A stretch of 64,000 nt of DNA, taken from the sequence record PX853108.1; one strand, given 5' to 3'. The stretch comes from a phage. The stretch's first letter is position 1, and every line of letters begins with the position of its first letter. The notes under the pieces are model-generated. The model did not search any database and was not told the origin of the DNA. It saw nothing but the letters and a program-made list of their open reading frames with translations. This document shows, piece after piece, positions 24,411-39,023 of this stretch. Made by a program: the position numbers and the translations under genes.

Positions 24411-24472
24411 TAACTGGCTTACTGTAGAGTAAGTTACCTATATACGATATAAGTTTGAATAGGAAACATGCT

Positions 24473-27400
24473 ATGTCAACATTTGACCGTCTGGCAGGTT
24501 TCGCAGACAGCATCACTAATGCTAAGCAAGTCGATGTCTCTACTGCAACCTCCCGGAAGCAAGCTGCACAGGGGCAAAGCCCTTTCCAATTAACCCCAGA
24601 TAATGCTTACAATCTACAGACTGGACGAGTAGGTAATCTTGGAATCGGTGCATACGAACCAGGTTCACTTCAGGCAGATTTCACTCAAGCCTCCCCCTTA
24701 GAAATCATTAATAAATATGGTAATGAGCAAGGTCTACAGATTCTTAATAGTCGAGCTAATGCTGCTGATGCTGTACGTCAGGACTTATCTAAACAACGTA
24801 CTAACGCAGAAGCATTTGGCGATATCCTTTCTGGTGTTGGTCTTGGTGTTGCTAATACCCTTGGGGGCATTGCTGCTCTTGGCACAGGCTTGGTCAATGA
24901 TAATGCCGGGGCATCCATTGCTTCCGGTCTTGACTGGTTGAATAAAGGTGTACACAACCTACAGTCCGATGCACTGAATGCTCGCCGTAATGTAGTACAG
25001 AACCAGAACGTAATATCTGCACAGGAAAATGAGAAACTCTATAAGCAAGATATTGCTAAAGGAGAAAGCGAACTCGTTGCTTCCCTGTCTCGCATTGGTC
25101 GTGATGCTTACGATTCTGTTGCTAATACCCTGTCTAACGGCATGGCTGCTACTGATGGTATTGCTGAAGGTGTAGGTTCTCTGTTTACTGGTGGCCCATT
25201 AATCCGTGGTGTATCTGCACTCGGTAAGGTAATGGTAGGTGGAGATAAAGCTGTTAAGGGTATTACCTTAGCTGCTGAGTTAGGTTCACGTCCTGCACGG
25301 ATTGCACAGTCTGCTGGTCGTGTTGCTGCACCTGCTATAGCAATTGGTGGTATGGAAGCTGGTGGTGCATACCAACAGACTGCTAATGAAATTATGGAAA
25401 TGCCATTCAGTGAACTGGCTGCTAAATCTCCAGTATACCAACAGCATATTAAAGATGGTTTATCTCCTGAAGAAGCACGTCGTCAGACTGCATCTGAAAC
25501 AGGTATTACTGCTGCTGGCTTAACTGCTCCAGTTGCTGCTCTTACTGGTCCACTGGTATCCAAGTTTGAACTTAACCCACTCAAGGTAGGTTCACTGGCT
25601 GGTGCTGGTTCTAACATGCTGCGTGAGACTGTAGAAGAAGGTATCCAGTCTGGTACAAGTCAGTTCGCACAAAACACTGCAATCAAGGAAAATGTTGATG
25701 CATCTCGTGACATCCTCAAAGGTGTAGGCGAACAAACTGGTCTTGGTGCATTGTATGGCTTTGGTTCTGCTGGGGTTGCTCAAGCTCCTGGTGCAACTGT
25801 TAAGGCTGCTGGTGCTGCCGTTGGTCCTGCTGTACGTACTACCCTGGCTGGTGCTTCTTTGGCTGGTAAGGCACTAGCAAAAGTAGCCTCCCCTATTACT
25901 AACATCCTGGTTCAGCGTGGTGAAGAAGTAGCTAAACGTAACGAACAGGCATCTCCTGTATCTGATGCTACGGTTAATGCTGCTGCACAGGAAGCTACTG
26001 CTCAGGCAGAACAGGCCCAGGCAACCGTACAGGAAGCAGTAGATGCAATGGATATTTCTCCAGAAGAGAAAGCTGCTGCTACCCAGTATGCTGCTGACTT
26101 AACTCAGGTAATGAAGTTTGATCCAGTAGAACTGGAACAAGCTAGCCCTACAGTCCGTGAAGCTGTTTCTGGTTCCACTAACCGTGTTGAAGCTATTCAG
26201 AAGATGGCTGACCTGGTTAATACTGCCGAAGACCCTAACGTTCAAATGGAAGCTGCAATCCAGATGTACGACAACATCATGTCTATGGATAGCTTCATTA
26301 ACCGTGACCCAGGTGCTCTGGCTAATCTGGAACAAGGCTCTCCTGCTGCTAATATCGTTGACCAATTCTCTGGCCTGATGGCTAACGTTCAGAATACACC
26401 GAAAGTACTTCGTGCATTCCGTGCTATTCATTCCATGATTCAGGAACAGGCAGAAGCAGGTAAACTGAAAGCTACTGAAGAAGCTAACCAAGCCCAGGCA
26501 AACAATATTGCCATGGCTGCTGATATGTCTCCAGAAGTACTGGATGCAGATTCAGTAAACATGGTTCTGAAACATGCAAGTGAAGGTAAGATTACACTGG
26601 GGAATCGTCAGCGTGCTGCCCTGCAATCTGCTGCTGCCTTGTTACAGGGTGCACGAGAATTTGACGCTAAAGCAGAAGAACTAGGCTTACGTCCTCAAGA
26701 CATTGTTAGTAAACAGATTAAAACCGACGAGTCTCGTTCTAATGAAGGCCAGTACTCTGCGTTGCAACATGCTAAACGCATTCGTTCTGCGTACAACTCT
26801 GGTAACTTCGATTTGGCTTCCGCTTATCTCGACGACTTTATGAAGTTCGCCCAGCACATGCAGAATAAGGTCGGAGCGTTGAATGAGCATCTGATTTCTG
26901 GGAATGCGGATAAGAATAAGTCTGTCCATTATCAGGCTCTTACTCCCTCCCGTGAATGGGTACGTAGTCGTACTGGCCTCGGTGTCAATCCGTATGATAC
27001 CAAGTCTGTTAAGTTTGCCCAGCAAGTAGGACTGGAAGCCAAGACCGTAGCTGATATTGCTAACGCACTTGCTACGGCTTACCCGGAGCTTAATGTTTCT
27101 CATGTTAAGGTTACCCCATTGGATTCCCGTTTGGACAAGCCTGCTGCCCAAGTAGTTAAAGAGTTCCGTCAGGGCAATCTTGATGCTGCTCAATCCCAAC
27201 AGACCAATGAACCAGTGAATCAGGTTGATGAATCTCCTGTTACAAAACAGGAACCAGTTACCCCTACTGTACAGACTAAACCCTCTGTTAGTGAAGCTGT
27301 TAAAACAGAACCTACTATTAAAGAGTCTAAACCACAGACTGCAAAAGAACCTGAGAACCAGTCTGAAAAACAGGATGCTGTTGAACAGCCTACTGAATCT

Positions 27401-30400
27401 GAAAGGGATGCTTATGTAAAAGAGAATACTATTTCTCAAGAAACTCTTAATAAGTATGGTGACCGTAGGGAGAGTCCTTGGCTATTTGCTGATGGTACTG
27501 TTGTTGGTTCCAATGGTGACCATATCAGCCTGTCTGATGTATTTGGTCATGATGGTTATCGTGACATGTCTTTGGATACTGGTGCTGTACGTTCTACTTT
27601 CTACAAAGGAAGTGAGCAACCGTTCGTATCCCTGCAATTGTTTGATAATCAGAAGCTAACTGCTGAACAATTCAATACTGTTCAATCATTCGTAGAAGCA
27701 AACAATGCACTGATTCAGATTGGTGTAGATACATCTGGGCTTAATACCAATAACGTTGAGAAAGAAGAAGTATCACTGGCTCAACTGAAAGCAGACTATA
27801 CCGTTGGTGGTAAACCCCTATCTCAAATGGAAACAGTGTTCCCTGTCTATAACAATGAAAAGACATCGAACCAGTTCCTTAAAGCATTTTCTCTACCAGA
27901 GGAGCCTAAGTCTCGTACCATTGGTTCTGAATCTCCTTTGACTGATGTTAAGAAAGCACTGTCTTCTGCTGCCCGCTTTGAAGCATTCACTCAAAAAGAA
28001 AATAACGCACTCACGAGTGATGTGATTAAGCGTTACCAGGATTTGTTTGATTTTGGTGAAACTTTGAAGACCACTCTGTCTGACCGTCTGGCTAAGTTCC
28101 TTGCTAACAAGAACGTTGGTAAACGTTTTGCAGAAGGTACTGAGGCTAACCGTTGGGTGGGTGGTAAGTTACTTAACATCGTAGAGAAAGATGGTGATAC
28201 CTTTAAGTTCAACGACCAGTTGTTAGAGACTGCTGTACTTGCAGGTTTGCAATGGCGACTAACTGCTACACAGAATGCTGCTGTTAAAGACATGAAAGAC
28301 GTAGCTGCTATTACTGGTGTGGAAGCATCTCTGCTACCAGAAGGTATCCTCGCAGAGTTTGAGAATGCTCAAACCTTAGTAGAGGCTACTAACTCACTGG
28401 CTCAGAAGATTGAATCCTATTGGGGGCTTAATCGTAATGCTGATGCACCATTGGGTTATACCAAGGGTATCCCAATGGCAATGGCTACAGAGATTCTGTC
28501 TTCTCTCATTGAGATGGGTGAAGTTAAAGAGTCCATGCTGGATGTGTCTGAGATTGACCCAGAATCTAATAAGACCGTTGGTTTGTATACCATTGAGAAG
28601 TTAGATGATAACGATGCCATTAATAAATTCCCTACTGCTATTGAGGAAGCAGTCCTTCTAGAACCAGTAGAGAAATTGTACTTGGGTGATGATATTCCTT
28701 CAGTGGCTCAAACTCAGTTACGTAACCCGGCTGTCAAGAATACCCCGGAACAGAAAGCTGCTCTTAAAGCAGAACAGGCTACTGAGTTCCGTGTACACAT
28801 GCCCATGGTTAACTTCTATGAAGCATTGGGTCGTGACAACATTCTGGAATTGATGGGTGCTGGTGCTCTTAACCCAGAATTGCTGAATGTGAATACTGCT
28901 AAATCTCTGGAAGGTAAAAACCTGTCCGTGTCTATGGCATATGATTCCTTGTTTGGTGTTATCAATCAGATTAAGGAACAGGAGAATGGACTGGATACAC
29001 CTATTCACTATGGTTACAACATGACCCGTGTAGGTCGTATGCAGATGCTTGGTAAAAATAACCCACAATCCAGTAAGCTGGTCCGTGAAGCAATCTTACC
29101 AACCTTCTCTACCATCGACTTGAGCAATGAAAACAGTCAAACGTTCTCCGATTTCCAGTTAGGTCTGGCTCAGGCATTGGGCATCAAAGTTCATAAAATG
29201 TCTCGCGAAGTTATGTCAGATGAACTGACTAAAGCTCTGGAAGGTAAACTGAAACCTGCCGTTGATATGATGGTTGAGTTTGATAAGTCTGGACACTTAC
29301 CTACTGATGCAGTGGATATTCTGAAGACCTCTTTGGGTAATGATAAATCATTTGTAGCTCTCATGGCTCTTATGGAATATGCCCGTTACCTTAACAGTGA
29401 TGACCGTGCCAACTTTAATACCCCACTGTACGTTGAAGCTGATGGTGTAACCAACGGACCAATCAACGCAATGGTATTAATGACTGGTGGTAAGTTCACC
29501 CCAGACTGGATTAAGAATACTGCTAAAGGTGGCTTGTTCTTCGGTAAAGCTGGCAAGACTATGAACGAGCATCATTCGCACGAGGACAGTGTTGACCTGT
29601 ATGAAGCATCCACTAATGGTCTGCAACAAGCACTGAATGAATTACGTAGTACTTACCGTAACAACGTTCCTGTTATGAACCAGATGAACCATCTCCAGAA
29701 ATTAATGGACCTGTTCATTAAAGATTTCAATCTTAAGGAAGATGGTACTCTGGACCTGAAACGTGGTATTGCGAAAAACCCACTGACCATTACCATTTAT
29801 GGTTCTGGTGCTCGTGGTATTGCTGGCAAGATGGTTAGTGCAATTACTGATACCATCTACGAACGCTTCAGTGACGTTCTACAAGCTCGTGCTGCTGACC
29901 CTAGCATTTCACCAGCTATGGCTATGTTTGGTAAGGAGGCTGCGTCTGAGGCTGATGCTCAGGCTATGCTGGATACTTTCCTTACTTCTATGGAAGCATT
30001 GACTGGCAATGTTCCGGTTATGCGTAAAGGTGAGTTGTCTATTCAGCAGGTAGAAGGTGCTCTGACCGGTAAATTAGACCCTCAGAAGTTTACTGTATCA
30101 GGCAATGCTCTGAAGAATTTACAAGAGAACATGCTTCACTTGTTCGTTGAACCAATGCGTACTGGTATCCGAAATACTGTTGGCGAAGGTTTGATGTACT
30201 CTACTGAGAATTTGCAGAAGGCTACCCAGATTCAGTCTCTGGTATTGCAGGATATGTTCCAACAGGCAGTACAGGCTAAGCTGGCAGAAAAAGAAAAAGA
30301 CCCAACATGGAAGAAAGGTGATTTCTTAACACAGAAAGAACTGAATGAAATCCAGAATAGCTTAGCTCCACTGGCTCCAATGATTGAGACTGGTTCACAG

Positions 30401-33400
30401 ACTTTCTACATTGCTGGTAGTGAGAATACTGATGTTGCTAACCAAGTATTGGCTACTAACTTAGATGACCGTATGCGTGTACCAATGAGCATCTATGCTC
30501 CTTCACAGGCAGGCGTTGCAGGTATTCCGTTTATGACCATCGGTACTGGTGATGGCATGATGATGCAGACCCTTTCTACTATGAAAGGTGCTCCGAAGAA
30601 TACCCTGAAAATCTTTGATGGTATGAACATTGGTATCAACGATATCACCGATGCAAGCCGTAAAGCTAATGAGGCTGTATATACTTCCTGGCAGGGTAAC
30701 CCTATCAAGAATGTTTATGATTCCTTTGCTAAGTTCATGAAGAATGTAGACTTCAGTAAACTGTCTGATGAAACCAAACAGGCTATCGCTAAGTCTGCTC
30801 TGGAGTATGACCAGCGTGAGGGTGCTACCGATGACCTGTTACGTGTTGGTGCTGAACAGATTGAACGTAACCTGCGTAACATTGCTTTGGGTGTAGATAT
30901 TCGTCACAAGGTAATGGACCAGGTACAGGTCACCGTTGACCAGATGGCTGCTGTTGGTGCTCCTTACGTGAACAACGGTAAAATCTCTCTGGAAGGTCTG
31001 ACTGTAGACCAGCAAGTAGCTAAGCTGAACGAACTGTTTGATGCTGAATTAAACAAACGTCGTGATGCAGTTCGTGCTGCTAAAGCAGAACCAGTGAAAG
31101 AAGTACCGGCTATGGAGAAGGTTGGTCGTGTACTGAAGTCTGGTGTACGTCTGTTGTCTAATACTGCCATTACTAAGCTGGCTAAAGAGATGTCTCCTGA
31201 ACAGCAAGCAGTATTGAAAGAAATACAGAAATCCCTCGCTGCTAAAGACTATAAGGTTGTTTACGGTACACCTGCTCAACTGGATGCTTATGCTATTGAG
31301 AAGAATATTACTCGCCCAGCACCGGAAGATATTGAAGCTGCTGAAGCTGGTAATGCATATGGCTGGACTAACTTTGAAGATAAGACCATCTACTTAGTTA
31401 CCCCTTCCTTAGAGACTCTGGTTCATGAATTGGTACATGCTACTACTTTTGAATCTGTACTGGCTCATTATGAGGGTACTCCTAATGAAGCAGTACAGAA
31501 TATTGAAGACCTGATGAACCAGTTCCTTACTCTGGATGTTAAGGATGAATCTCCGGCTGTACGTGAAGCGTATGCCGATGCACTGAATACCATTAATGGT
31601 CATTTGTCTAATGGCTTCATTGAACCCGCAATGGCTAAAGCTGCTGCATTGAACGAGTACATGGCTTGGGGTTTAACCAACCGTGAACTGATTAGCAAGC
31701 AGAAGAAAACTACTGCACTTAAAACTATGGTTCAGGCTGTATATGAAGCAATCAAACGTCTGGTATTTGGACGTAAGAAAGCTCCAGCTAATGCAGATGA
31801 TATGTTCTCTGGCTTACTGTTTAACTCTGCTGTAGTAATGCGTGGGCAAGCTCCTACTGCTGCTGTAGCTAAAGACACTACTCTGTTCCATAACAAAGCA
31901 TATGGTGACAATACTCGTCTGGAAGAGTTAGGTAAGACCTTTGATAAACTGATTACTGACTACATTGGTTCAGAACCAGTACAGCAAGTAATTCGTAAAG
32001 GTAAATTCTCTGATGCAGTAGTGAATGCAACTAAAGTAACCCGTGATGTTCAGGCTCATGGCTTCACCATGAATATGCAGGAACAACGCCTCTTCACTAA
32101 CATTGTTGCTGCATTGGCTACTGAGGCTGCTATTAACCCTGCTGCTCTTGCTCGTGCACAGGAATACTACACGCATGTTACTAAAAACCTGACTGTTGAA
32201 GCATTTATGGCTGACCCTGATAGTACTAACCCTGCTGACCGTTATTATGCACAGCAGAAGTTCGATACTATCATGGGTGCTAACAACATTGAGTTTGATG
32301 CACAAGGTCGTTCTTCCTTACTGCCTACCTTTGTTGGTCTGGCTATGGTAAGTGAAGAAGTACGTAAGGTTCTGGCTGATATTCCTGTTATGAAAGCAGA
32401 TAAGAAATCAGGCAATACTGTTGACGCAATGCTGACTAACATTGGTACTGCTGCAATGGCTAGCCTGAATGCTCGTGTAGCAGGTGATACTAAAGCCACT
32501 AACGTACAGGAAGGTATGGATGCACTGGCTCAGACAATCATGCAGACCAGTCTTAATGCAGAATCCTTCTATGATTCCGTTGCTACCCCTACTGGTAATG
32601 CTATCGACCGTGCTAACCAGTATCTGGTGGATTCTATTGATGTACTGTCTACCCGTGCTTTGGAAGGTGCTCGTGAAGTTGCAGCTAATACCAAGAACCC
32701 GTTGGTTAAAGGTGCTGCTCATGCTGCACAATTGGTAGCTGCTATTGCTACAGAGAAGAATGGTGCAATCGTAGCCGAAGGTGTTATGGCTGCAATGAAC
32801 CAGGGTAAAGTATGGCAACCCTTCCATGACCTGGTTAATGACATAATCGGACGTACTAAGAGCAATGCTTCTGTATACGATTTGATTAAAGCAGTTCGTG
32901 CACAGGTACAGGCTGACCGTCAACAGTTCCGTGAACACTTGCCTACCACTATCGCATCCAAGTTCAGCCGTAAGCTGACTAATGATGAGTGGAAAGCAAT
33001 GCATACAGGTATGGGTAAAACTGACTTAGCTGTTCTGCGTGACACTATGTCTCTGGATGAAATCCGTGACCTGCTGTCTGACCAAAAGATTGTTGACCGT
33101 GAGGTTAATAAACTGGAAGCAGATTTGCAGAAACAAGCAGGACGTAACTGGCCTCTGATTAGTCGTAAATCTAAGCAACTGGCTCAGTACATGATTAATG
33201 GTACGGTTGGTAATAACCTGTTGCGTAATGCTACTGCAATTTCTCGTTTACTGGGTGAACGTAAGACTACACGTTCTGTTGTAGATGTAGCTCAACTGGA
33301 TAAACTCATTACCCTGTATGCACTGGAAGCAATGAATAAAACTGACCGTGAGATGTTATCTTCACTGGCTCAGACAGAAATTGAAGGTATGGACTTTGCT

Positions 33401-35227
33401 ACTTCTTACCTGGTTGGTCAGCGTAAAGATGAAATGGCTAAAGCTAAGTCTGATAGTCGTGCAACCCTGAACCAGTACAAAGGGTATATTCCTGGTGAGA
33501 ACAAACAGGGTGTTAACCTGATTGTTGCTGAAGATAGTCAGTTTGCTGATTTGATTGAGAAATCCTATGTACGACTGGGTACTTATCAGGGTAGCTCTGC
33601 TAATCGTGGTCCAGCACGTAGTTACTACTTTGCACCGGTACAGGCACAGGCTCCATTCTCACAAGGTATCCTACAGAACGTTCGCAATACTGCTGGTGGC
33701 GTAGACCTTGGCACAGGCTTTACGATGGGAACCATGGTAGCTGGTCGTATTACTGACAAGCCTTCTGTAGACCGTATCACTAAAGCACTGGCTCGTGGTG
33801 AACGCGGTAATGAACCACTGCTGCCTGTATATGATGCCAATGGTAATGTGGTTGCTTACGAGCAATCCATTGACCCTAACATGCTGAAGCACATCGAAGG
33901 TGAGAACCATCTTGCTCGTGCAATTGGTGTATGGCGTGGTCGTCAGGTGGAAGAAGCTAAGGCTCAGCGTTTCAACGATATGCTGATTGAGAACCTGCAT
34001 AGCATGTACGAGAACGACATTAAGATGTCTGCTTCTAATAAGTCCCAGTACGTTAACCTTCTTGGTTCGAAACTGGACCCAGTAACTGCCGATGCTCTTA
34101 AACTGATGAACAGTGAAACTCGTCAGAAAGCAGAAAGTCTGTTTGGACCGGGTGAGTTGTGGGTACGTCGTGACATGCTCAACGATGCACTGGGTTATCG
34201 TGCAGCTTCTGTTGGTGATGCCTGGTCTGGTAATTCTCGTTGGTCCCCAGAAACACTAGATACCTTCAAGAAAGCTATGCTGGGTGTCTTTGGAAACCGT
34301 GCTTATAAGTACGTAATGGGTGGTGAGAATCTGGTTCAAAACTTAGTTAAAGAAGCCAAGACTCTGATTGTAGTTAAGTCAGTAGTCGTACCTGCTGTTA
34401 ACTTCCTGGCTAACCTTTACCAGATGGTTGCTCGTGGTGTACCTGTTAAGAACATTGCTAAGAGCATCCCACAGAAAACTGCTGAGATTAATCAGTATCT
34501 GAAATCTCGCCTGCGTCAGGTAGATGCAGAAGCAGAATTACGTGCAGCTACTAACCCTAACCAGATTCGTAAGCTGAAGGCTGAGATTCAGTCCATCACG
34601 GATAGCCATAAGCGTTTGAGTATCTGGCCTCTGTTAGAAGCTGGTGAGTTTTCTTCAATTGCAGATGCTGGTATTGGACGTGATGACATCCTGATTACTG
34701 AAGGTAAACTTCACGAATACATGGAAAAGCTGGCTGATAAGTTGCCTAAGTCTGTACGTAATGCTGGTCGTTATGCACTTATCACTAAGGATACTGCTCT
34801 CTTCCAGGGTATCCAGAAGACGGTTGAGTACTCTGACTTTATTGCTAAAGCAATCATCTATGATGAACTGACTCAGCGTAAAGGTAAGACCCGAGAAGAA
34901 GCACTCGGACGTGTAACGGAAGAGTTCATTAACTATGACCGTTTGCCTGGCCGTTTCCGTGGGTATATGGAAAGTGTTGGTCTGATGTGGTTCTACAACT
35001 TTAAGATTCGTTCTGCAAAAGTTGCAGTGTCCATGATTCGTAACAACCCAGTACATGCTGCTATGGCTATGTTGGCTCCAACTCCTACCATGTTTGGTAA
35101 CGTTGGTCTGCCTATTAAGGACAACATCTTTAGTATTGCTGCACAGGGCAACCTCGGTTACTCCTTCGGATTCGGTATGGGCTTACGTGCCCATACCCTG
35201 AACCCGTGGCTCAACCTCACTAACTAA
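24473..35227 (+). CDS. Virion-encapsidated RNA polymerase (N4 gp50-like giant vRNAP)
   Basis: ORF 24455-35227 begins at TTG; first ATG with RBS AGGAAA is 24473 (~3,584 aa). Central region has T7-like motif A (ADGVTNG, nt ~29423), motif B (RGIAKNPLTITIYG, nt ~29762) and motif C (IFDGMNIG, nt ~30611). Confidence 0.85.
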   Translation: MSTFDRLAGFADSITNAKQVDVSTATSRKQAAQGQSPFQLTPDNAYNLQTGRVGNLGIGAYEPGSLQADFTQASPLEIINKYGNEQGLQILNSRANAADAVRQDLSKQRTNAEAFGDILSGVGLGVANTLGGIAALGTGLVNDNAGASIASGLDWLNKGVHNLQSDALNARRNVVQNQNVISAQENEKLYKQDIAKGESELVASLSRIGRDAYDSVANTLSNGMAATDGIAEGVGSLFTGGPLIRGVSALGKVMVGGDKAVKGITLAAELGSRPARIAQSAGRVAAPAIAIGGMEAGGAYQQTANEIMEMPFSELAAKSPVYQQHIKDGLSPEEARRQTASETGITAAGLTAPVAALTGPLVSKFELNPLKVGSLAGAGSNMLRETVEEGIQSGTSQFAQNTAIKENVDASRDILKGVGEQTGLGALYGFGSAGVAQAPGATVKAAGAAVGPAVRTTLAGASLAGKALAKVASPITNILVQRGEEVAKRNEQASPVSDATVNAAAQEATAQAEQAQATVQEAVDAMDISPEEKAAATQYAADLTQVMKFDPVELEQASPTVREAVSGSTNRVEAIQKMADLVNTAEDPNVQMEAAIQMYDNIMSMDSFINRDPGALANLEQGSPAANIVDQFSGLMANVQNTPKVLRAFRAIHSMIQEQAEAGKLKATEEANQAQANNIAMAADMSPEVLDADSVNMVLKHASEGKITLGNRQRAALQSAAALLQGAREFDAKAEELGLRPQDIVSKQIKTDESRSNEGQYSALQHAKRIRSAYNSGNFDLASAYLDDFMKFAQHMQNKVGALNEHLISGNADKNKSVHYQALTPSREWVRSRTGLGVNPYDTKSVKFAQQVGLEAKTVADIANALATAYPELNVSHVKVTPLDSRLDKPAAQVVKEFRQGNLDAAQSQQTNEPVNQVDESPVTKQEPVTPTVQTKPSVSEAVKTEPTIKESKPQTAKEPENQSEKQDAVEQPTESERDAYVKENTISQETLNKYGDRRESPWLFADGTVVGSNGDHISLSDVFGHDGYRDMSLDTGAVRSTFYKGSEQPFVSLQLFDNQKLTAEQFNTVQSFVEANNALIQIGVDTSGLNTNNVEKEEVSLAQLKADYTVGGKPLSQMETVFPVYNNEKTSNQFLKAFSLPEEPKSRTIGSESPLTDVKKALSSAARFEAFTQKENNALTSDVIKRYQDLFDFGETLKTTLSDRLAKFLANKNVGKRFAEGTEANRWVGGKLLNIVEKDGDTFKFNDQLLETAVLAGLQWRLTATQNAAVKDMKDVAAITGVEASLLPEGILAEFENAQTLVEATNSLAQKIESYWGLNRNADAPLGYTKGIPMAMATEILSSLIEMGEVKESMLDVSEIDPESNKTVGLYTIEKLDDNDAINKFPTAIEEAVLLEPVEKLYLGDDIPSVAQTQLRNPAVKNTPEQKAALKAEQATEFRVHMPMVNFYEALGRDNILELMGAGALNPELLNVNTAKSLEGKNLSVSMAYDSLFGVINQIKEQENGLDTPIHYGYNMTRVGRMQMLGKNNPQSSKLVREAILPTFSTIDLSNENSQTFSDFQLGLAQALGIKVHKMSREVMSDELTKALEGKLKPAVDMMVEFDKSGHLPTDAVDILKTSLGNDKSFVALMALMEYARYLNSDDRANFNTPLYVEADGVTNGPINAMVLMTGGKFTPDWIKNTAKGGLFFGKAGKTMNEHHSHEDSVDLYEASTNGLQQALNELRSTYRNNVPVMNQMNHLQKLMDLFIKDFNLKEDGTLDLKRGIAKNPLTITIYGSGARGIAGKMVSAITDTIYERFSDVLQARAADPSISPAMAMFGKEAASEADAQAMLDTFLTSMEALTGNVPVMRKGELSIQQVEGALTGKLDPQKFTVSGNALKNLQENMLHLFVEPMRTGIRNTVGEGLMYSTENLQKATQIQSLVLQDMFQQAVQAKLAEKEKDPTWKKGDFLTQKELNEIQNSLAPLAPMIETGSQTFYIAGSENTDVANQVLATNLDDRMRVPMSIYAPSQAGVAGIPFMTIGTGDGMMMQTLSTMKGAPKNTLKIFDGMNIGINDITDASRKANEAVYTSWQGNPIKNVYDSFAKFMKNVDFSKLSDETKQAIAKSALEYDQREGATDDLLRVGAEQIERNLRNIALGVDIRHKVMDQVQVTVDQMAAVGAPYVNNGKISLEGLTVDQQVAKLNELFDAELNKRRDAVRAAKAEPVKEVPAMEKVGRVLKSGVRLLSNTAITKLAKEMSPEQQAVLKEIQKSLAAKDYKVVYGTPAQLDAYAIEKNITRPAPEDIEAAEAGNAYGWTNFEDKTIYLVTPSLETLVHELVHATTFESVLAHYEGTPNEAVQNIEDLMNQFLTLDVKDESPAVREAYADALNTINGHLSNGFIEPAMAKAAALNEYMAWGLTNRELISKQKKTTALKTMVQAVYEAIKRLVFGRKKAPANADDMFSGLLFNSAVVMRGQAPTAAVAKDTTLFHNKAYGDNTRLEELGKTFDKLITDYIGSEPVQQVIRKGKFSDAVVNATKVTRDVQAHGFTMNMQEQRLFTNIVAALATEAAINPAALARAQEYYTHVTKNLTVEAFMADPDSTNPADRYYAQQKFDTIMGANNIEFDAQGRSSLLPTFVGLAMVSEEVRKVLADIPVMKADKKSGNTVDAMLTNIGTAAMASLNARVAGDTKATNVQEGMDALAQTIMQTSLNAESFYDSVATPTGNAIDRANQYLVDSIDVLSTRALEGAREVAANTKNPLVKGAAHAAQLVAAIATEKNGAIVAEGVMAAMNQGKVWQPFHDLVNDIIGRTKSNASVYDLIKAVRAQVQADRQQFREHLPTTIASKFSRKLTNDEWKAMHTGMGKTDLAVLRDTMSLDEIRDLLSDQKIVDREVNKLEADLQKQAGRNWPLISRKSKQLAQYMINGTVGNNLLRNATAISRLLGERKTTRSVVDVAQLDKLITLYALEAMNKTDREMLSSLAQTEIEGMDFATSYLVGQRKDEMAKAKSDSRATLNQYKGYIPGENKQGVNLIVAEDSQFADLIEKSYVRLGTYQGSSANRGPARSYYFAPVQAQAPFSQGILQNVRNTAGGVDLGTGFTMGTMVAGRITDKPSVDRITKALARGERGNEPLLPVYDANGNVVAYEQSIDPNMLKHIEGENHLARAIGVWRGRQVEEAKAQRFNDMLIENLHSMYENDIKMSASNKSQYVNLLGSKLDPVTADALKLMNSETRQKAESLFGPGELWVRRDMLNDALGYRAASVGDAWSGNSRWSPETLDTFKKAMLGVFGNRAYKYVMGGENLVQNLVKEAKTLIVVKSVVVPAVNFLANLYQMVARGVPVKNIAKSIPQKTAEINQYLKSRLRQVDAEAELRAATNPNQIRKLKAEIQSITDSHKRLSIWPLLEAGEFSSIADAGIGRDDILITEGKLHEYMEKLADKLPKSVRNAGRYALITKDTALFQGIQKTVEYSDFIAKAIIYDELTQRKGKTREEALGRVTEEFINYDRLPGRFRGYMESVGLMWFYNFKIRSAKVAVSMIRNNPVHAAMAMLAPTPTMFGNVGLPIKDNIFSIAAQGNLGYSFGFGMGLRAHTLNPWLNLTN

Positions 35228-35647: not shown

Positions 35648-36028
35648 TCAGATTGTACAACCACCACCGTCACAGGTATTGTTCTCTGCAAAGGAAGCCA
35701 GAGCCTTAGCAGTCTCTTCTTTCTCATGTAGTGCCTGACGTAGCAGGTAACCCTCTAATTCCCAAATCTTATTGAATGCATTTTCATATGCATACTGACG
35801 GCCCTTTTGCTCATCATAGATAGTCGGGTCTACACAGGCAGATACGCCTTCGACTTTGAATCCATTTTCCAGAATTATTACACAATAGGTTACCAGACCC
35901 AGGTTAGCCAAATCATCTGCCGGTAGTGCAGAGGGGTCAACGAATGCAGACTTCACTGCATCTGCACCATTAAAATAGTAGACGCTCTTAATCTTAGATT
36001 CGATTGCTTCTTTACTTACTGTTGCCAT
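35648..36028 (-). CDS. Hypothetical protein
   Basis: ORF 35648-36040 trimmed to the internal ATG (MATVSKE); C-terminal Cys-rich tail (CDGGGC). Confidence 0.4.
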   Translation of the reverse strand: MATVSKEAIESKIKSVYYFNGADAVKSAFVDPSALPADDLANLGLVTYCVIILENGFKVEGVSACVDPTIYDEQKGRQYAYENAFNKIWELEGYLLRQALHEKEETAKALASFAENNTCDGGGCTI

Positions 36029-36174
36029 TATTAGCCTCATAGAGTGGTTTGAGTTTGTACTTAAACATGACTGCGTTGTTATAGGCTACGCTACCTGCAA
36101 ATACCAAGTATTTATGTCCTCGATTATCCGTTACCTCATAGGCATACGGGGTAGAGATTAGGTCAATCATAACT

Positions 36175-36450
36175 TCAGCTTAGTGTTGTTGATTTAACAT
36201 AGGTTTCCCGGAATATATCCGGTTTACAAGGATATAACTCCCCATGTATGCCCTGGATAATATAGTCATTAGGTGAAGCAGTTAAGATACCCTCCAAGGT
36301 TCTAATACATAATTTACTATCATTCCCAGAGAACCAGACTACCCCATTACGAAGGGCATCTACTATCCAAGCTGGTTCTTTGTTCAGATTAAGACTTCCG
36401 TCCCATTGAAAAGCTTCAATCTCAACAGGTTTTTTACGATATTTAGCCAT
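36175..36450 (-). CDS. Hypothetical protein
   Basis: ORF 36175-36558 trimmed to ATG 36450 (MAKYRKKPVEIEAFQWDG), which has AGGAGA at 7 nt; the longer form would run through a terminator hairpin. Confidence 0.45.
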   Translation of the reverse strand: MAKYRKKPVEIEAFQWDGSLNLNKEPAWIVDALRNGVVWFSGNDSKLCIRTLEGILTASPNDYIIQGIHGELYPCKPDIFRETYVKSTTLS

Positions 36451-36467
36451 AGTATTTCTCCTACTTT

Positions 36468-36497
36468 CAAATAAAAAAGTCCCTCCGAAGAGGGACT
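36468..36497 (-). terminator. Intrinsic terminator (minus strand) downstream of the tRNA region
   Basis: Stem AGTCCCTC/GAGGGACT with CGAA loop; the minus strand reads the hairpin followed by TTTTTTATTT. Confidence 0.6.
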
Positions 36498-36754
36498 TAG
36501 TAGCTTTAACGCAGCTAACGAGGCTTGTATGAGTGCTAGGATTTGTAACTCCCAGCATATCCCCACCGTTTTAGCTGACGGCAAACAGAGATTGATAGTC
36601 TCAGAGGATACTTTACTCAGGCGAGTATTATAGTCTACTCATACTCACACTACCCTAACGGGTAGTATGTTTGCAATACCTAGAGTGCCGGACTGTCTCA
36701 CCGGCATTGTCTTTAGAGTGCAATGCAATCAGGACTATGTTCTCTATTAATGAG

Positions 36755-36833: not shown

Positions 36834-36909
36834 TGGTTACCCGGACAGGATTCGAACCTGTGTCCTAGTTGGTTTACTAGTGGGGCTTTACCACTAAGCC
36901 TACCGGGTA
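36834..36909 (-). tRNA. tRNA-like gene with encoded CCA but non-canonical anticodon arm
   Basis: Minus-strand TACCCGG-TA-GGCT-TAGTGGTAA-AGCC ... ACAGG-TTCGAAT-CCTGT-CCGGGTA-A-CCA: perfect acceptor, D and T arms; the anticodon region CCACTAGTAAACCAACTAGG folds only as a 5-bp stem with 6-nt loop or 4-bp stem with 8-nt loop. Confidence 0.6.
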
Positions 36910-37493
36910 TTAATGAGTGAGTCACGCCAGACTTTAACTGGCTCCTTCTTCGCAATCCTTACATACCCCTACATAATTATTGCGTTAAGCTTTTTTGTTT
37001 AAGTTTAAGTGAAGGCGTTCTTGCTGACTCATAATAGGTTGGGCGTTTGACGAATGACTAGTTCGTTACTACCCGTTTGCCATAAGTACCTGGCGACTTT
37101 GGTTTGAGGTGGGAGTCCGAGTCCTGTACAGCCTTACCGTTCACACATTGGCAGCGTATCTAGAATAGCACTTCCGGCAACTGGATTTAACTGTTACACC
37201 TCAAATCTGGTAGGGGCGTCCAGAAGTCTCATCTGGTACTTACGCCGTCGTATGGTTACGACTTACCCCCATAATCTTTCTAATTCAGAGTAGCACTGCT
37301 CCACGTTTGGCCTTTGAACTCCGGGATGGATTAGTGCAATGCTACTTTGAATTAGTTGTCAGGGATTCCACCTGGCTCCATCTGTTTTTATAGTCACTCA
37401 GATATCGTCTGGACTCTTTACTATGGGACTCACCGGCTACTTAGAGTAACTACGGTAAATATTATTCCACAGCTTACATTGATGTCGCATCCC

Positions 37494-37577
37494 ATCAAAG
37501 AGTACACTAGCACTGGGCCACGCATAAGTGGGCATCGGCCTTCCTCCCACAGCTAATCTACTAATGTACTCATTGAT
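37494..37577. repeat. Repeat unit A bounded by 17-bp imperfect terminal inverted repeats
   Basis: 5' end ATCAAAGAGTACACTAG and 3' end CTAATGTACTCATTGAT are reverse complements at 15 of 17 positions; followed by a GC hairpin at 37582-37608. Confidence 0.5.
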
Positions 37578-37749
37578 TGGCCCCCCGTTTCTAATACATG
37601 GACGGGGGAACTCCACGGTCGTTTGATAATCAGGACGACTCACTCCTGACTGACGCTTGGCTTATTAGGCTGCCATCAGAACAACATCATCGTTTGCATT
37701 TATGTTATTGGTTCGTTTCTAAAAAACCGCATAATCGCTTACGAAAACT

Positions 37750-37850
37750 ATCAAAGAGTACACTAAGCACAGGTAGCTATCCTGCCGTCTTCTCCACCTA
37801 CACCGGCTACAGTGTAAACCTCCGCACGTTAGCTTAATGTACTCATTGAT
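37750..37850. repeat. Repeat unit B, second copy of the TIR-bounded element
   Basis: 5' ATCAAAGAGTACACTAAG and 3' CTTAATGTACTCATTGAT (16 of 18 complementary); ends nearly identical to unit A, interior diverged but shares CTTC(C)TCC(C)AC. Confidence 0.5.
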
Positions 37851-38035
37851 AGGATGTCATAATAGGGGAGGGAGGACGAGTCCCTCTTTACCCTATGATT
37901 TAGTTTGCATGTAAGACCTAACAATTCGATGCTGTAGGTAGCTATGCTATCCGACATTTAACCCAGCCCATATAGGGGCTTATGTGATTAAAATGCTCAA
38001 CATTGAGCGGTTAGTTGATAAGGGATCTGAAGCCT

Positions 38036-38063
38036 TATCCCAAAGATACTAACCTTTGGGATA
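38036..38063. other. Perfect 10-bp stem hairpin in the ORF-free region
   Basis: TATCCCAAAG-ATACTAAC-CTTTGGGATA; neighbouring hairpins at 38080-38105 (AATGGCC / CCTATAGGGAGA loop / GGCCATT) and 38164-38194 (CTGACG...GGGG-GGCCA-CCCC...CGTCAG). Confidence 0.4.
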
Positions 38064-38582
38064 TAGCCTAAGATTCAGAAATGGCCCCTATAGGGAGAGG
38101 CCATTGATTAACCCGAATGTTGCTTTACCTTTTATGTGATAACCCATTCTTAAAATAGTCTAGCTGACGGATGGGGGGCCACCCCTAGCGTCAGTGCCAT
38201 ACGGCAAAGATTAAGTTAAGAAAGGTTATGATAGGAGTTCCTATCTCAAAGGATTCTAACAGAACCCTTCACGATATTAACTACTCAACGTGAAATTCTT
38301 TGATTCCCTCGACAGGTTCTACACCCCAGGAAAAAGCTAACTTTTCCATTTAATTTTGATTGAACCAATGGACTGGGGAGAGTATTCCAATCCACTGGTT
38401 CGGTTGTTGTTGTTACTCTGGCGGCTTGTCACCACCGTTTTTATCACTGAGTTTCCAAAGTATAAGCACAGTGATGATAAATGCTATGTATGGAGCCGAC
38501 ACGTCCAGAATCCTGATAAGCAATAGCATCAGAATTACGAACACTACCACAAATAGCAGCAGCTTCTGAGCCACCTACCAGA

Positions 38583-39023
38583 TTAACTACGTTTAAGGCC
38601 AGCGAACAGTGAAGGCTTAGTAGCAGGTTTCTCTGCTGGTTCTTCAGCCTTAACTTCTTCCTGCACAACTTCTTCTTGTGCTTCTGGTTCAGTCACTGCT
38701 TCTTCTTTAGGTTCCGGCGTAGAACTCTCGTTCTGACCACCAGTAGAGGTCTGGGTTTCTTCTACCTTTACCTCTTCAACTACTTCTTCCGGCTCTGATT
38801 CTACTGGACGGTGTTTAGCTTCTTGTGGGTTCTTACGAGAACGACGAGTTTTCTTCTCTACTCCCACGGGTGGGGTATCTTCGTGAACCTCTTCGTTGAT
38901 GCCTACGGAGGCTGTACCATCTGCATTGATGACAATATTAACGTCACCAGCAAGATTGATTTGATCATCGACATAAGCCTGTACAGCAGCTTCTACTTCG
39001 GACTGGTTCAAAATGATTTGCAT
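38583..39023 (-). CDS. Acidic low-complexity protein (hypothetical)
   Basis: 146 aa; C-terminal half extremely Glu/Pro/Val-rich (EEVVEEVKVEETQ...); first gene downstream of the ORF-free region on the minus strand. Confidence 0.45.
   Translation of the reverse strand: MQIILNQSEVEAAVQAYVDDQINLAGDVNIVINADGTASVGINEEVHEDTPPVGVEKKTRRSRKNPQEAKHRPVESEPEEVVEEVKVEETQTSTGGQNESSTPEPKEEAVTEPEAQEEVVQEEVKAEEPAEKPATKPSLFAGLKRS

Follow-up and report, generated by a model that had tools for sequence, protein, structure and literature searches.

Intrinsic terminators and terminator-ended small RNAs (sRNAs), the RNase III sites R0.3-R1.3 of phage T7, the structured RNAs of phage stable-RNA clusters (T4 species 1 and 2, ROOL and GOLLD), and the lambda pR'-tR' leader (6S RNA) with the nut and put elements are the closest described counterparts of the locus reported here. 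The T7 sites are intergenic hairpins with internal loops and without a U-tract, carried on a polycistronic transcript, and the lambda leader is a structured RNA of ~100-200 nucleotides (nt) that is immediately followed by a terminator and then by lysis or late genes. The early promoters of the N4 virion RNA polymerase (vRNAP) have a 5-7-bp stem and a 3-nt loop, and lie at the early-gene end of the genome. Phages of the G7C, phiEco32 and 7-11 types are widely used in phage therapy and as models of transcription. Here, we describe element B, a structured RNA on the minus strand of phage sequence record PX853108.1. The window, that is, the whole 64,000-nt stretch analysed (counted from its first letter), is from a G7C-like coliphage (Gamaleyavirus, Schitoviridae, N4-like), and homologues of element B were found in the phiEco32-like phages (Kuravirus, Suseptimavirus) and in Salmonella phage 7-11 (Moazamivirus).

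An earlier note, made from the letters alone, had described a cluster of three hairpins, all of which are indeed present:

38036-38063: hairpin 1, perfect 10-bp stem (TATCCCAAAG / CTTTGGGATA) with an 8-nt loop, the core of an inverted repeat 38025-38045 / 38054-38074
38080-38105: hairpin 2, 7-bp stem (AATGGCC / GGCCATT) with the 12-nt loop CCTATAGGGAGA
38164-38194: hairpin 3, CTGACG-GAT-GGGG-GGCCA-CCCC-TAG-CGTCAG, two stems around a 3x3 internal loop

These hairpins are parts of a conserved, previously unannotated structured RNA on the minus strand. Against dinucleotide shuffles, the 191-nt stretch folds with z = -4.24 on the plus strand and -4.18 on the minus strand (0/200 shuffles as good), and a conserved block of 436 nt gives a folding z of -5.4 on the minus strand. 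The plus strand, on which the earlier note had worked, is the wrong one: the tRNA and neighbour genes, the G-U pairs and the terminators of the homologues all indicate the minus strand. A U-G pair is found in helix P3 of the Kuravirus and 7-11 copies, G-U pairs occur in hairpins a, h4 and h5 (listed below), and it is on the strand of element B that the homologues have their terminators. The minus-strand fold is also the stronger, with 10 bp and a 6-nt loop for hairpin 2 and ~21 bp for hairpin 1, because the G-U pairs formed there would be A-C on the plus strand.

The core of element B is a three-way junction preceded by a leader of two hairpins:

38134-38230, minus strand: element B core, three-way junction of ~100 nt (covariance model, RNAalifold and single-sequence fold)
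38224-38229 with 38139-38144, minus strand: helix P0, AUAACC with GGUUAU
38216-38221 with 38148-38153, minus strand: helix P1, UCUUAA with UUAAGA
38196-38205, minus strand: P2, GCC-GUAU-GGC, a 3-bp hairpin with a GUAU loop
38164-38194, minus strand: P3, which is hairpin 3, CUGACG / CGUCAG, 3x3 internal loop CUA/AUC, then GGGG-UGGCC-CCCC
38249-38269, minus strand: hairpin a, AAGGGUUCU-GUU-AGAAUCCUU, which opens the shared 5' leader and immediately follows the gp47.2-remnant stop codon (minimum-free-energy fold)
38230-38245, minus strand: hairpin b1, GAUAGG-AACU-CCUAUC, upstream copy of leader hairpin b (from the fold; stem identical to hairpin b of the Kuravirus element A)

P0 and P1 close the junction, and strands of 10 nt join the P1 5' strand to P2 and P3 to UUAAGA. 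A variable stretch separates the GGUUAU of P0 from hairpin h4. Hairpin a is also present in ECBP2 (AAGGAUUCU-UACG-AGAGUCCUU) and in phage 7-11 (AAGGGUUCU-UUCG-AGAGCCCUU), its pair 5 being A-U, G-C or G-U across the three lineages.

The structure was tested with a covariance model, R1, built from ten Kuravirus and two Moazamivirus sequences and from zero Gamaleyavirus sequences. Searched against the 64-kb window, R1 gave a single hit, at 38134-38230 on the minus strand, over the full model length (53.1 bits, E 9.7e-11), with the P0/P1 register chosen by Infernal itself; it matches every Gamaleyavirus locus tested. The window copy is thus a member of the family as defined from phiEco32-like and 7-11-like phages, and all pairs form in it. 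When Kuravirus sequences were aligned with 7-11, the 27 pairs were 99.1% paired, six with a compensatory change, and pairing fell to at most 51% when the partners were slid by 1-3 columns. In the three-lineage alignment of 32 distinct rows, 99.0% of the cells are paired (at most 49% when slid) and 7/27 pairs are compensatory: three of the six pairs of the proximal P3 stem, two P1 pairs, and one pair each in P2 and distal P3. A further pair of the proximal P3 stem shows C-G/U-G. P0-P3 were independently recovered by RNAalifold and by the single-sequence fold. The hairpins are not due to chance, and the suggestion of the earlier note that they could belong to a larger structured RNA is borne out, with covariation.

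Neither the CUA/AUC loop nor the G-C pairs on either side of it vary in any of the 32 distinct sequences from the three lineages. By inspection only, the loop appears to be followed in Kuravirus and 7-11 by a G-C pair and then purine-purine pairs, and an A..G / C..A position pair switches jointly in most sequences. In phiEco32-like and 7-11-like phages, the helix closing element B is followed by U-CCA, like a tRNA acceptor end. Element B is non-coding, since single-nucleotide indels lie inside the core. The sole short open reading frame (ORF) that is shared is broken by such indels among the Gamaleyaviruses and also among the Kuraviruses, and a candidate small peptide across P2-P3 (ATG...TAA, 16-19 codons, two lineages) was rejected, 1-nt indels breaking its frame.

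Conservation and covariation in related genomes, which the earlier note had named as a check, were both found. The block 37857-38286 is present in all Gamaleyaviruses, and the 251-nt stretch around the hairpins is 94-98% identical in at least 56 Gamaleyavirus records covering at least 80% of the query. Element B together with h5 is present in 77/77 Gamaleyavirus-type records found. Among 21 relatives, the mean identity of element B plus h5 (96.0%) is close to that of gp46 (95.8%), with 85.7% for the gp47 coding sequence and 81.8% for the rest of the element A block.

The homologues were reached through the first 56 nt of the BLAST query, which unexpectedly match phiEco32-like phages. The ECBP2 locus is the same non-coding block minus the central ~200 nt that hold the hairpins, and this missing piece is a separate intergenic element ~2.3 kb further along on the same strand. 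Indeed, in phiEco32-like phages the two parts lie apart, both in the early operon: element A between phi32_101 and phi32_100, and element B between phi32_91 and phi32_90, alone in its intergenic gap and ending, as in 7-11, in a stem followed by U6. Phage 7-11 has both elements, with B directly upstream of the endolysin gene. The alignments indicate that in the Gamaleyaviruses element B is inserted inside element A. Between G7C and ECBP2, the ORFs that precede the element show no homology, so it is the RNA, and not the ORF, that is shared. A third, partial Kuravirus paralogue, B2, is found between phi32_113 and phi32_112 (L027 3440-3660 on the minus strand, phiEco32; also L220 3142-3231 and L229 995-1083). 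B2 shares both leader hairpins and also contains a P2-P3 unit (GGC-AUAU-GCC, CACCG-CUA-GGG...AAC-AUC-CGGUG), with the same CUA/AUC loop on different stems.

Searches beyond these lineages were negative. Rfam, at the gathering threshold and at E <=10, returned nothing for 38025-38236 other than miRNA-model noise (E 1.8), with no ROOL, GOLLD, riboswitch, ribozyme, tRNA or tmRNA, and ARAGORN found no tRNA or tmRNA there. E. coli genomes, searched as a test of host-RNA mimicry, gave no match to element B; an over-loose pattern gave at least 120 chance hits in bacterial genomes, and 0/80 loci screened fit the model. Pattern scans of IMG/VR and metagenomes returned only the same lineages, chance hits and the paralogue B2. 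A literature search on non-coding RNAs of phiEco32 or N4-like phages found nothing relevant. Likeness of P3 or of the terminator to a K-turn, a hammerhead or boxA was dropped by eye, key nucleotides being missing or not conserved. As judged from these searches, with no sequence or model match to any described family, element B appears to be a new family within the phage structured small RNAs.

Downstream of the core, on the same strand, lie hairpins 2 and 1 and the remainder of element A:

38080-38105, minus strand: h4, which is hairpin 2, AAUGGCCUCU-CCCUAU-AGGGGCCAUU followed by UUCUGAAUCUU; 10-bp stem, -14.5 kcal/mol
38025-38074, minus strand: h5, which contains hairpin 1, ~21-bp duplex with three 1x1 mismatches and the loop UAGU; -25.8 kcal/mol
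38017-38039, minus strand: b2, hairpin of the element A leader, GAUAAGG-CUUCAGAUC-CCUUAUC; -6.8 kcal/mol alone
38009-38015, minus strand: ACUAACC, a motif located after the second leader hairpin of both elements, A and B, in all lineages (read from the sequence)
37857-38008, minus strand: element A body, with a variable hairpin (37995-38008), the conserved 16-mer UGUUAGGUCUUACAUG (37908-37923) and a terminal G+C-rich hairpin (37862-37896)

Hairpin h4 aligns column for column with the Kuravirus GGCUCUC-UUAG-GAGAGUCC-UUUUUU and the 7-11 GGCUCUG-GAAA-CAGAGUCC-UUUUUU, which the scan and the 7-11 record identify as terminators. It has the G+C-rich stem-loop of an intrinsic terminator and lacks the U run, the stem being followed by AUUUCUGA with UUUCU only, below the scan threshold. 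By this alignment, h4 is the homologue, or remnant, of the intrinsic terminator of element B, of which the Gamaleyaviruses have kept the stem and lost most of the U-tract; h4 is 98.3% conserved among the 21 relatives. The earlier note had stated that none of the hairpins has a U-tract. This holds for the plus strand and fails for the minus strand, where the degraded U-tract UUCUGAAUCUU (AUUUCU counting the last stem pairs) follows hairpin 2. Its view that the hairpins are unlikely to be simple terminators was mistaken for hairpin 2, the positional homologue of a stem plus U6 intrinsic terminator in phiEco32-like and 7-11-like phages.

The likeness of the hairpin 2 loop to a T7 promoter, to which the same note had drawn attention, is a coincidence. 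The match is the 11-nt CTATAGGGAGA (-5 to +6 of the T7 class III promoter), 11/23 positions, on the non-transcribed strand. With at most one mismatch this 11-mer occurs once against 1.44 expected, and at least once in 80/100 shuffles, while no match to the 23-nt consensus TAATACGACTCACTATAGGGAGA, which includes the -17 to -6 recognition part, was found at three mismatches or fewer. Relatives retain the stem but not the exact loop: G7C and nithesis lack 1 nt of it, and phiG17, L022 and HK2 have substitutions there. We therefore rejected the T7-promoter reading, the match being at chance level and the loop not conserved.

Hairpin h5 is specific to the Gamaleyaviruses, where it joins element B to element A; Kuravirus and 7-11, in which the two elements are separate, lack it. 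It is 98.9% conserved among the 21 relatives, and 17 distinct sequences show one compensatory change (U-A to C-G, in L062) and a few single mismatches. Its duplex has the length expected of an RNase III substrate (about two turns, at least 20 bp of near-continuous double-stranded RNA), and we propose that h5 may be an RNase III-type processing site between elements B and A. Of the idea in the earlier note that the hairpins are RNA-processing or protein-binding sites, processing at hairpin 1 stays plausible. The 3' half of h5 is the 5' arm and loop of b2, so that this part of b2 is sequestered in h5 and the two hairpins are mutually exclusive. Hairpin b2 covaries with the ECBP2 GAUAGGA..UCCUAUC (two compensatory pairs) and the 7-11 GUUGAGG..CCUUGAC. 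The ACUAACC motif is complementary to the h5 apex GGUUAGU (38048-38054; the motif is 33 nt downstream) and to GUUAG (37918-37922); complementarity suggests that it may pair with one or the other, without covariation support. The element A body is homologous to the Kuravirus intergenic element (phi32_101/phi32_100) and to a 7-11 sequence, and the phiEco32 copy of its terminal hairpin is terminator-like in the scan.

Read on the minus strand, this RNA cluster is downstream of the middle genes gp45-gp47 and upstream of both tRNA genes. The genes of 38583-64000 are on the minus strand and include gp47, the RuvC-like gp46 and the single-strand-binding gp45; the vRNAP gene is a 3590-amino-acid (aa) ORF at 24455-35227 on the plus strand. 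Between the middle genes and the vRNAP gene lies a spacer of ~1.7 kb (36910-38583) without a credible ORF, with the three hairpins at its gp47-proximal end and two tRNA genes, a tRNA-Ile and one odd tRNA, both on the minus strand. The spacer is a mosaic whose module sets differ between Gamaleyaviruses; PD38, Bp4 and ECBP1 are closest to the window, with ~91% identity over it.

For the function of element B we favour, at about even chances, a cluster of minus-strand non-coding RNA genes from which element B is released by processing to act in trans as a stable small RNA. In such a scheme, h4 would be a leaky stop or a hairpin that protects a 3' end, and transcription would run on into the downstream RNA modules and tRNAs. 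Host RNase III would cut h5 and release element B; by separating B from A, this cut would also allow the otherwise sequestered leader hairpin b2 to form. The freed element B would be a trans-acting, stable and probably protein-binding small RNA, with the invariant internal loop and the junction as its recognition surface. Action in trans is favoured because the core has been retained ahead of three different kinds of sequence (a 50-aa ORF, the endolysin gene, other RNA modules), and because it is also kept in an N4-like phage in which the U-tract is decayed and the middle genes are transcribed by a different RNA polymerase.

Several points weigh against this scheme. We infer, for element B, its transcription, RNA ends, stability and processing as well as a trans-acting or protein-binding role. 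Cleavage of h5 by RNase III is a guess from its length, and several natural h5 variants carry a mismatch. A conserved sigma-70 promoter before element B was not found, so an independent gene is not supported. The covariation comes from only three lineages, that is, few independent events, in an alignment (A5) that was fitted to the model, and P0 and most of P1 are invariant and thus uninformative. PHROGs gave no function for any neighbouring or downstream gene, and for this reason the suggestion that element B generally controls lysis genes comes from 7-11 only. Finally, the Kuravirus and 7-11 layout of structured leader, terminator, ribosome-binding site and ORF fits a cis-acting attenuator equally.

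Such a cis-acting attenuator or antitermination element (riboswitch-like or nut/put-like), in which the junction decides whether transcription stops at hairpin 2 and thereby splits the operon temporally, is the main rival, and we consider it rather unlikely. A strong intrinsic terminator does follow the core by ~40-60 nt in Kuravirus and 7-11, ahead of a ribosome-binding site and an ORF (in 7-11, the endolysin gene). The otherwise tightly packed Kuravirus early operon has three structured gaps (B2, A and B), and in some Kuraviruses the P1 3' strand (AAGAGC), as read from the sequence, is complementary to the 5' arm of the terminator. The sensor-like core is conserved; this candidate anti-terminator pairing, however, is not kept in 7-11 or in the window. 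The Gamaleyavirus core is still 95-96% conserved, although the U-tract there is decayed and the next ~1.5 kb hold no protein gene; the different RNA polymerase of N4-type middle transcription and the lack of an Rfam riboswitch match also speak against control in cis.

The remaining explanations are less likely. That the hairpins are only RNA-processing or stability signals, like the RNase III sites of the T7 early genes, and that element B has no function of its own, is unlikely. Such signals would fit hairpins that lie between the genes of a polycistronic phage transcript and have internal loops but no good U-tract, as well as the long duplexes (h5 and the 17-bp helices 37835-37853/37750-37765 and 37562-37580/37494-37509) and the stable hairpin found in every lineage after the stop codon of the preceding ORF. 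Processing by itself, however, would not call for a 3x3 loop that never varies, for conserved junction strands or for a three-way junction retained in three phage lineages, and P3 (6 + 4 bp) is below RNase III length.

Reaching beyond the trans-acting scheme, elements A and B, the long-helix and tag-like modules described below and the tRNAs could form a mobile stable-RNA toolkit, swapped among unrelated enterobacterial phages, that reprograms host translation or ribosome rescue. Element B would then be a decoy sequestering a host RNA-binding factor through the CUA/AUC loop and junction, even a mimic of the tRNA acceptor; we put this forward as speculation that is quite unlikely to hold.

It is very unlikely that element B is a hitch-hiking relic, that is, a mobile RNA cassette from a phiEco32-like phage that now lies idle in the Gamaleyaviruses. 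The insertion of B into A with duplication of hairpin b, the decayed U-tract of the terminator and the presence or absence of surrounding modules by isolate would be expected of a relic, but its occurrence with h5 in every Gamaleyavirus-type record, at 94-98% identity over full coverage, would not, nor would an element better conserved than the adjoining gp47 gene. Finally, a DNA-level signal (a T7-like or N4 vRNAP hairpin promoter, an origin, or a recombination or homing site, palindromic by coincidence) is highly improbable: CTATAGGGAGA within the loop, a mosaic spacer with modules shuffled between phages at shared ACUAACC and hairpin motifs and the HNH endonuclease gene adjacent in G7C could be cited for it, but the 11-mer is at chance level in a variable loop and the 23-mer consensus is absent, an N4 hairpin promoter was rejected on loops of 8, 12 and 5 nt (3 nt in N4) and on a location between the middle genes and the vRNAP gene, G-U pairs are tolerated, compensatory changes preserve pairing and not sequence, and the homologues end in transcription terminators.

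Several further features were observed around element B:

37582-37752, minus strand: tmRNA-tag-like module, ~330 nt downstream of element B, with a tag ORF at 37668-37697 and stops at 37662-37667
37750-37853 and 37494-37580, minus strand: two copies of a module in which a 17-bp long-range helix (AUCAAUGAGUACAUUAG / CUAGUGUACUCUUUGAU) encloses a small pseudoknot-like core
36910-37490, minus strand: ~580 nt of further non-coding sequence, parts of which are 93-98% conserved in relatives (e.g. 37349-37415), with a strong palindrome near 37275-37357
36834-36909, minus strand: second tRNA, with an abnormal anticodon region
36175-36558 and 35648-36040, minus strand: adjacent ORFs of 127 and 130 aa
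~38285-38400, minus strand: gp47.2, a small ORF, disrupted in the window

The tag-like module consists of a pseudoknot, the frame GCA AAC GAU GAU GUU GUU CUG AUG GCA GCC UAA UAA (ANDDVVLMAA, compared with ANDENYALAA in E. coli) and two more pseudoknots. It scores 33 bits with the Rfam tmRNA_permuted model, below threshold because it has no tRNA-like domain. BLAST of 37480-37860 found matches in 449 phage records. The tag region itself was matched in P1 (between a dicF-like region and tRNAs), Pylas, Buchananvirus, and T1-like, Vi01-like and FelixO1-like phages, nearly always unannotated. A 10-codon AND...(A/V)A frame is kept in 8/8 lineages read, with differing codons, and for at least two copies a sigma-70-like promoter of their own was recognised by eye. 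An exhaustive survey of ssrA in 2014 had phage entries only from mycobacteriophages and Bacillus phage G (PMC4131195).

Some Gamaleyaviruses have an extra tRNA-like gene (L009 1599-1670, ECBP1; L006 1610-1681, St11Ph5), ~95 nt upstream of the tag-like module; the equivalent position is ~37855 in the window, which lacks it. ARAGORN calls it tRNA-Ala(cgc), with a good T arm, a poor anticodon stem and no G3:U70. A helix of ~18 bp (CAACAGGUAAG.GC... / ...GC.CUUUCC.GUUG) adjoins the tag-like module in Klebsiella phage Pylas (L039 ~1155-1245) and P1 (L038 ~1655-1740). The Pylas helix carries D-arm-like and T-arm-like hairpins (GCGGUUCGAUUCCGC) as a cap and was not called by ARAGORN; this capped helix could be the missing tRNA-like partner of the tag-like module, which may be of more interest than element B. 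The 17-bp helix of the neighbouring module shows compensatory changes in relatives, for example AAUG/CUUU to GGGG/CCCC in PhAPEC5, and the module also follows element A in some Kuraviruses (MN05, SR02).

The second tRNA was called by ARAGORN as 'tRNA-???, anticodon (ac)' and by the Rfam tRNA model at 42 bits with 18 nt unaligned; the labels in relatives vary (Cys, Thr, Xle, OTHER). The two adjacent ORFs match the N-terminal and C-terminal parts, respectively, of the 300-position phrog_419, and from these matches may be a split or interrupted gene. The gp47.2 ORF (56 aa in G7C) is intact in most relatives; ~70 nt are missing from the window at 38285/38286, leaving a remnant of 22 codons. An HNH endonuclease gene adjoins the spacer locus in G7C. 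Over the RNA cluster, PV252060.1 (phage nithesis) and other records have strings of 30-50-codon 'hypothetical protein' ORFs on both strands, and OY979416.1 labels the region tail spike protein; these are probably annotation artefacts.

If our reading is correct, an unannotated structured RNA family is common to the N4-like G7C phages, the phiEco32-like phages and the Salmonella 7-11-like phages. Its core is as conserved as the best-kept neighbour protein gene, which implies an overlooked function, and an RNA that binds a host or phage factor or gates transcription would be directly testable in these phages. The annotation of the spacer is corrected as well: the tiny hypothetical ORFs of several records overlie RNA elements, and the 'non-coding' 1.7 kb is made up of exchangeable RNA modules in an array, including one that resembles the messenger part of tmRNA.

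Compared with known systems, the T7 class III promoter shares with this locus eleven identical nucleotides, CTATAGGGAGA, and nothing of the -17 to -6 region, in a chance-level match on the non-transcribed strand of a variable loop. The likeness to the T7 RNase III sites is one of form: we know of no sequence relation between them and the hairpins, h5 with ~21 bp has the right length, and element B differs as a multi-helix junction with invariant unpaired nucleotides. Like the lambda pR'-tR' leader and nut/put, element B lies just upstream of a terminator and, in 7-11, ahead of the endolysin gene; unlike them, it has no boxA/boxB or put similarity and no promoter before it, and it is kept in an N4-like phage with a decayed terminator. 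It resembles intrinsic terminators and terminator-ended sRNAs in that, in the phiEco32-like and 7-11-like phages, it lies directly behind an upstream ORF and ends in a G+C-rich stem with U6; in the window copy the stem is followed by UUUCU only and is not called by the scan, and the body is a conserved three-way junction, not a short seed region. ROOL and GOLLD, which are large ornate RNAs beside phage tRNA genes, and the T4 species 1 and 2 RNAs (likened here by description), which are stable RNAs produced along with phage tRNAs, are structured non-coding modules of phage tRNA or stable-RNA clusters that are spread among phages, as element B is; element B differs in having no Rfam hit to ROOL, GOLLD or any other family, in being far smaller (~100-170 nt), and in not lying by tRNAs in Kuravirus and 7-11.

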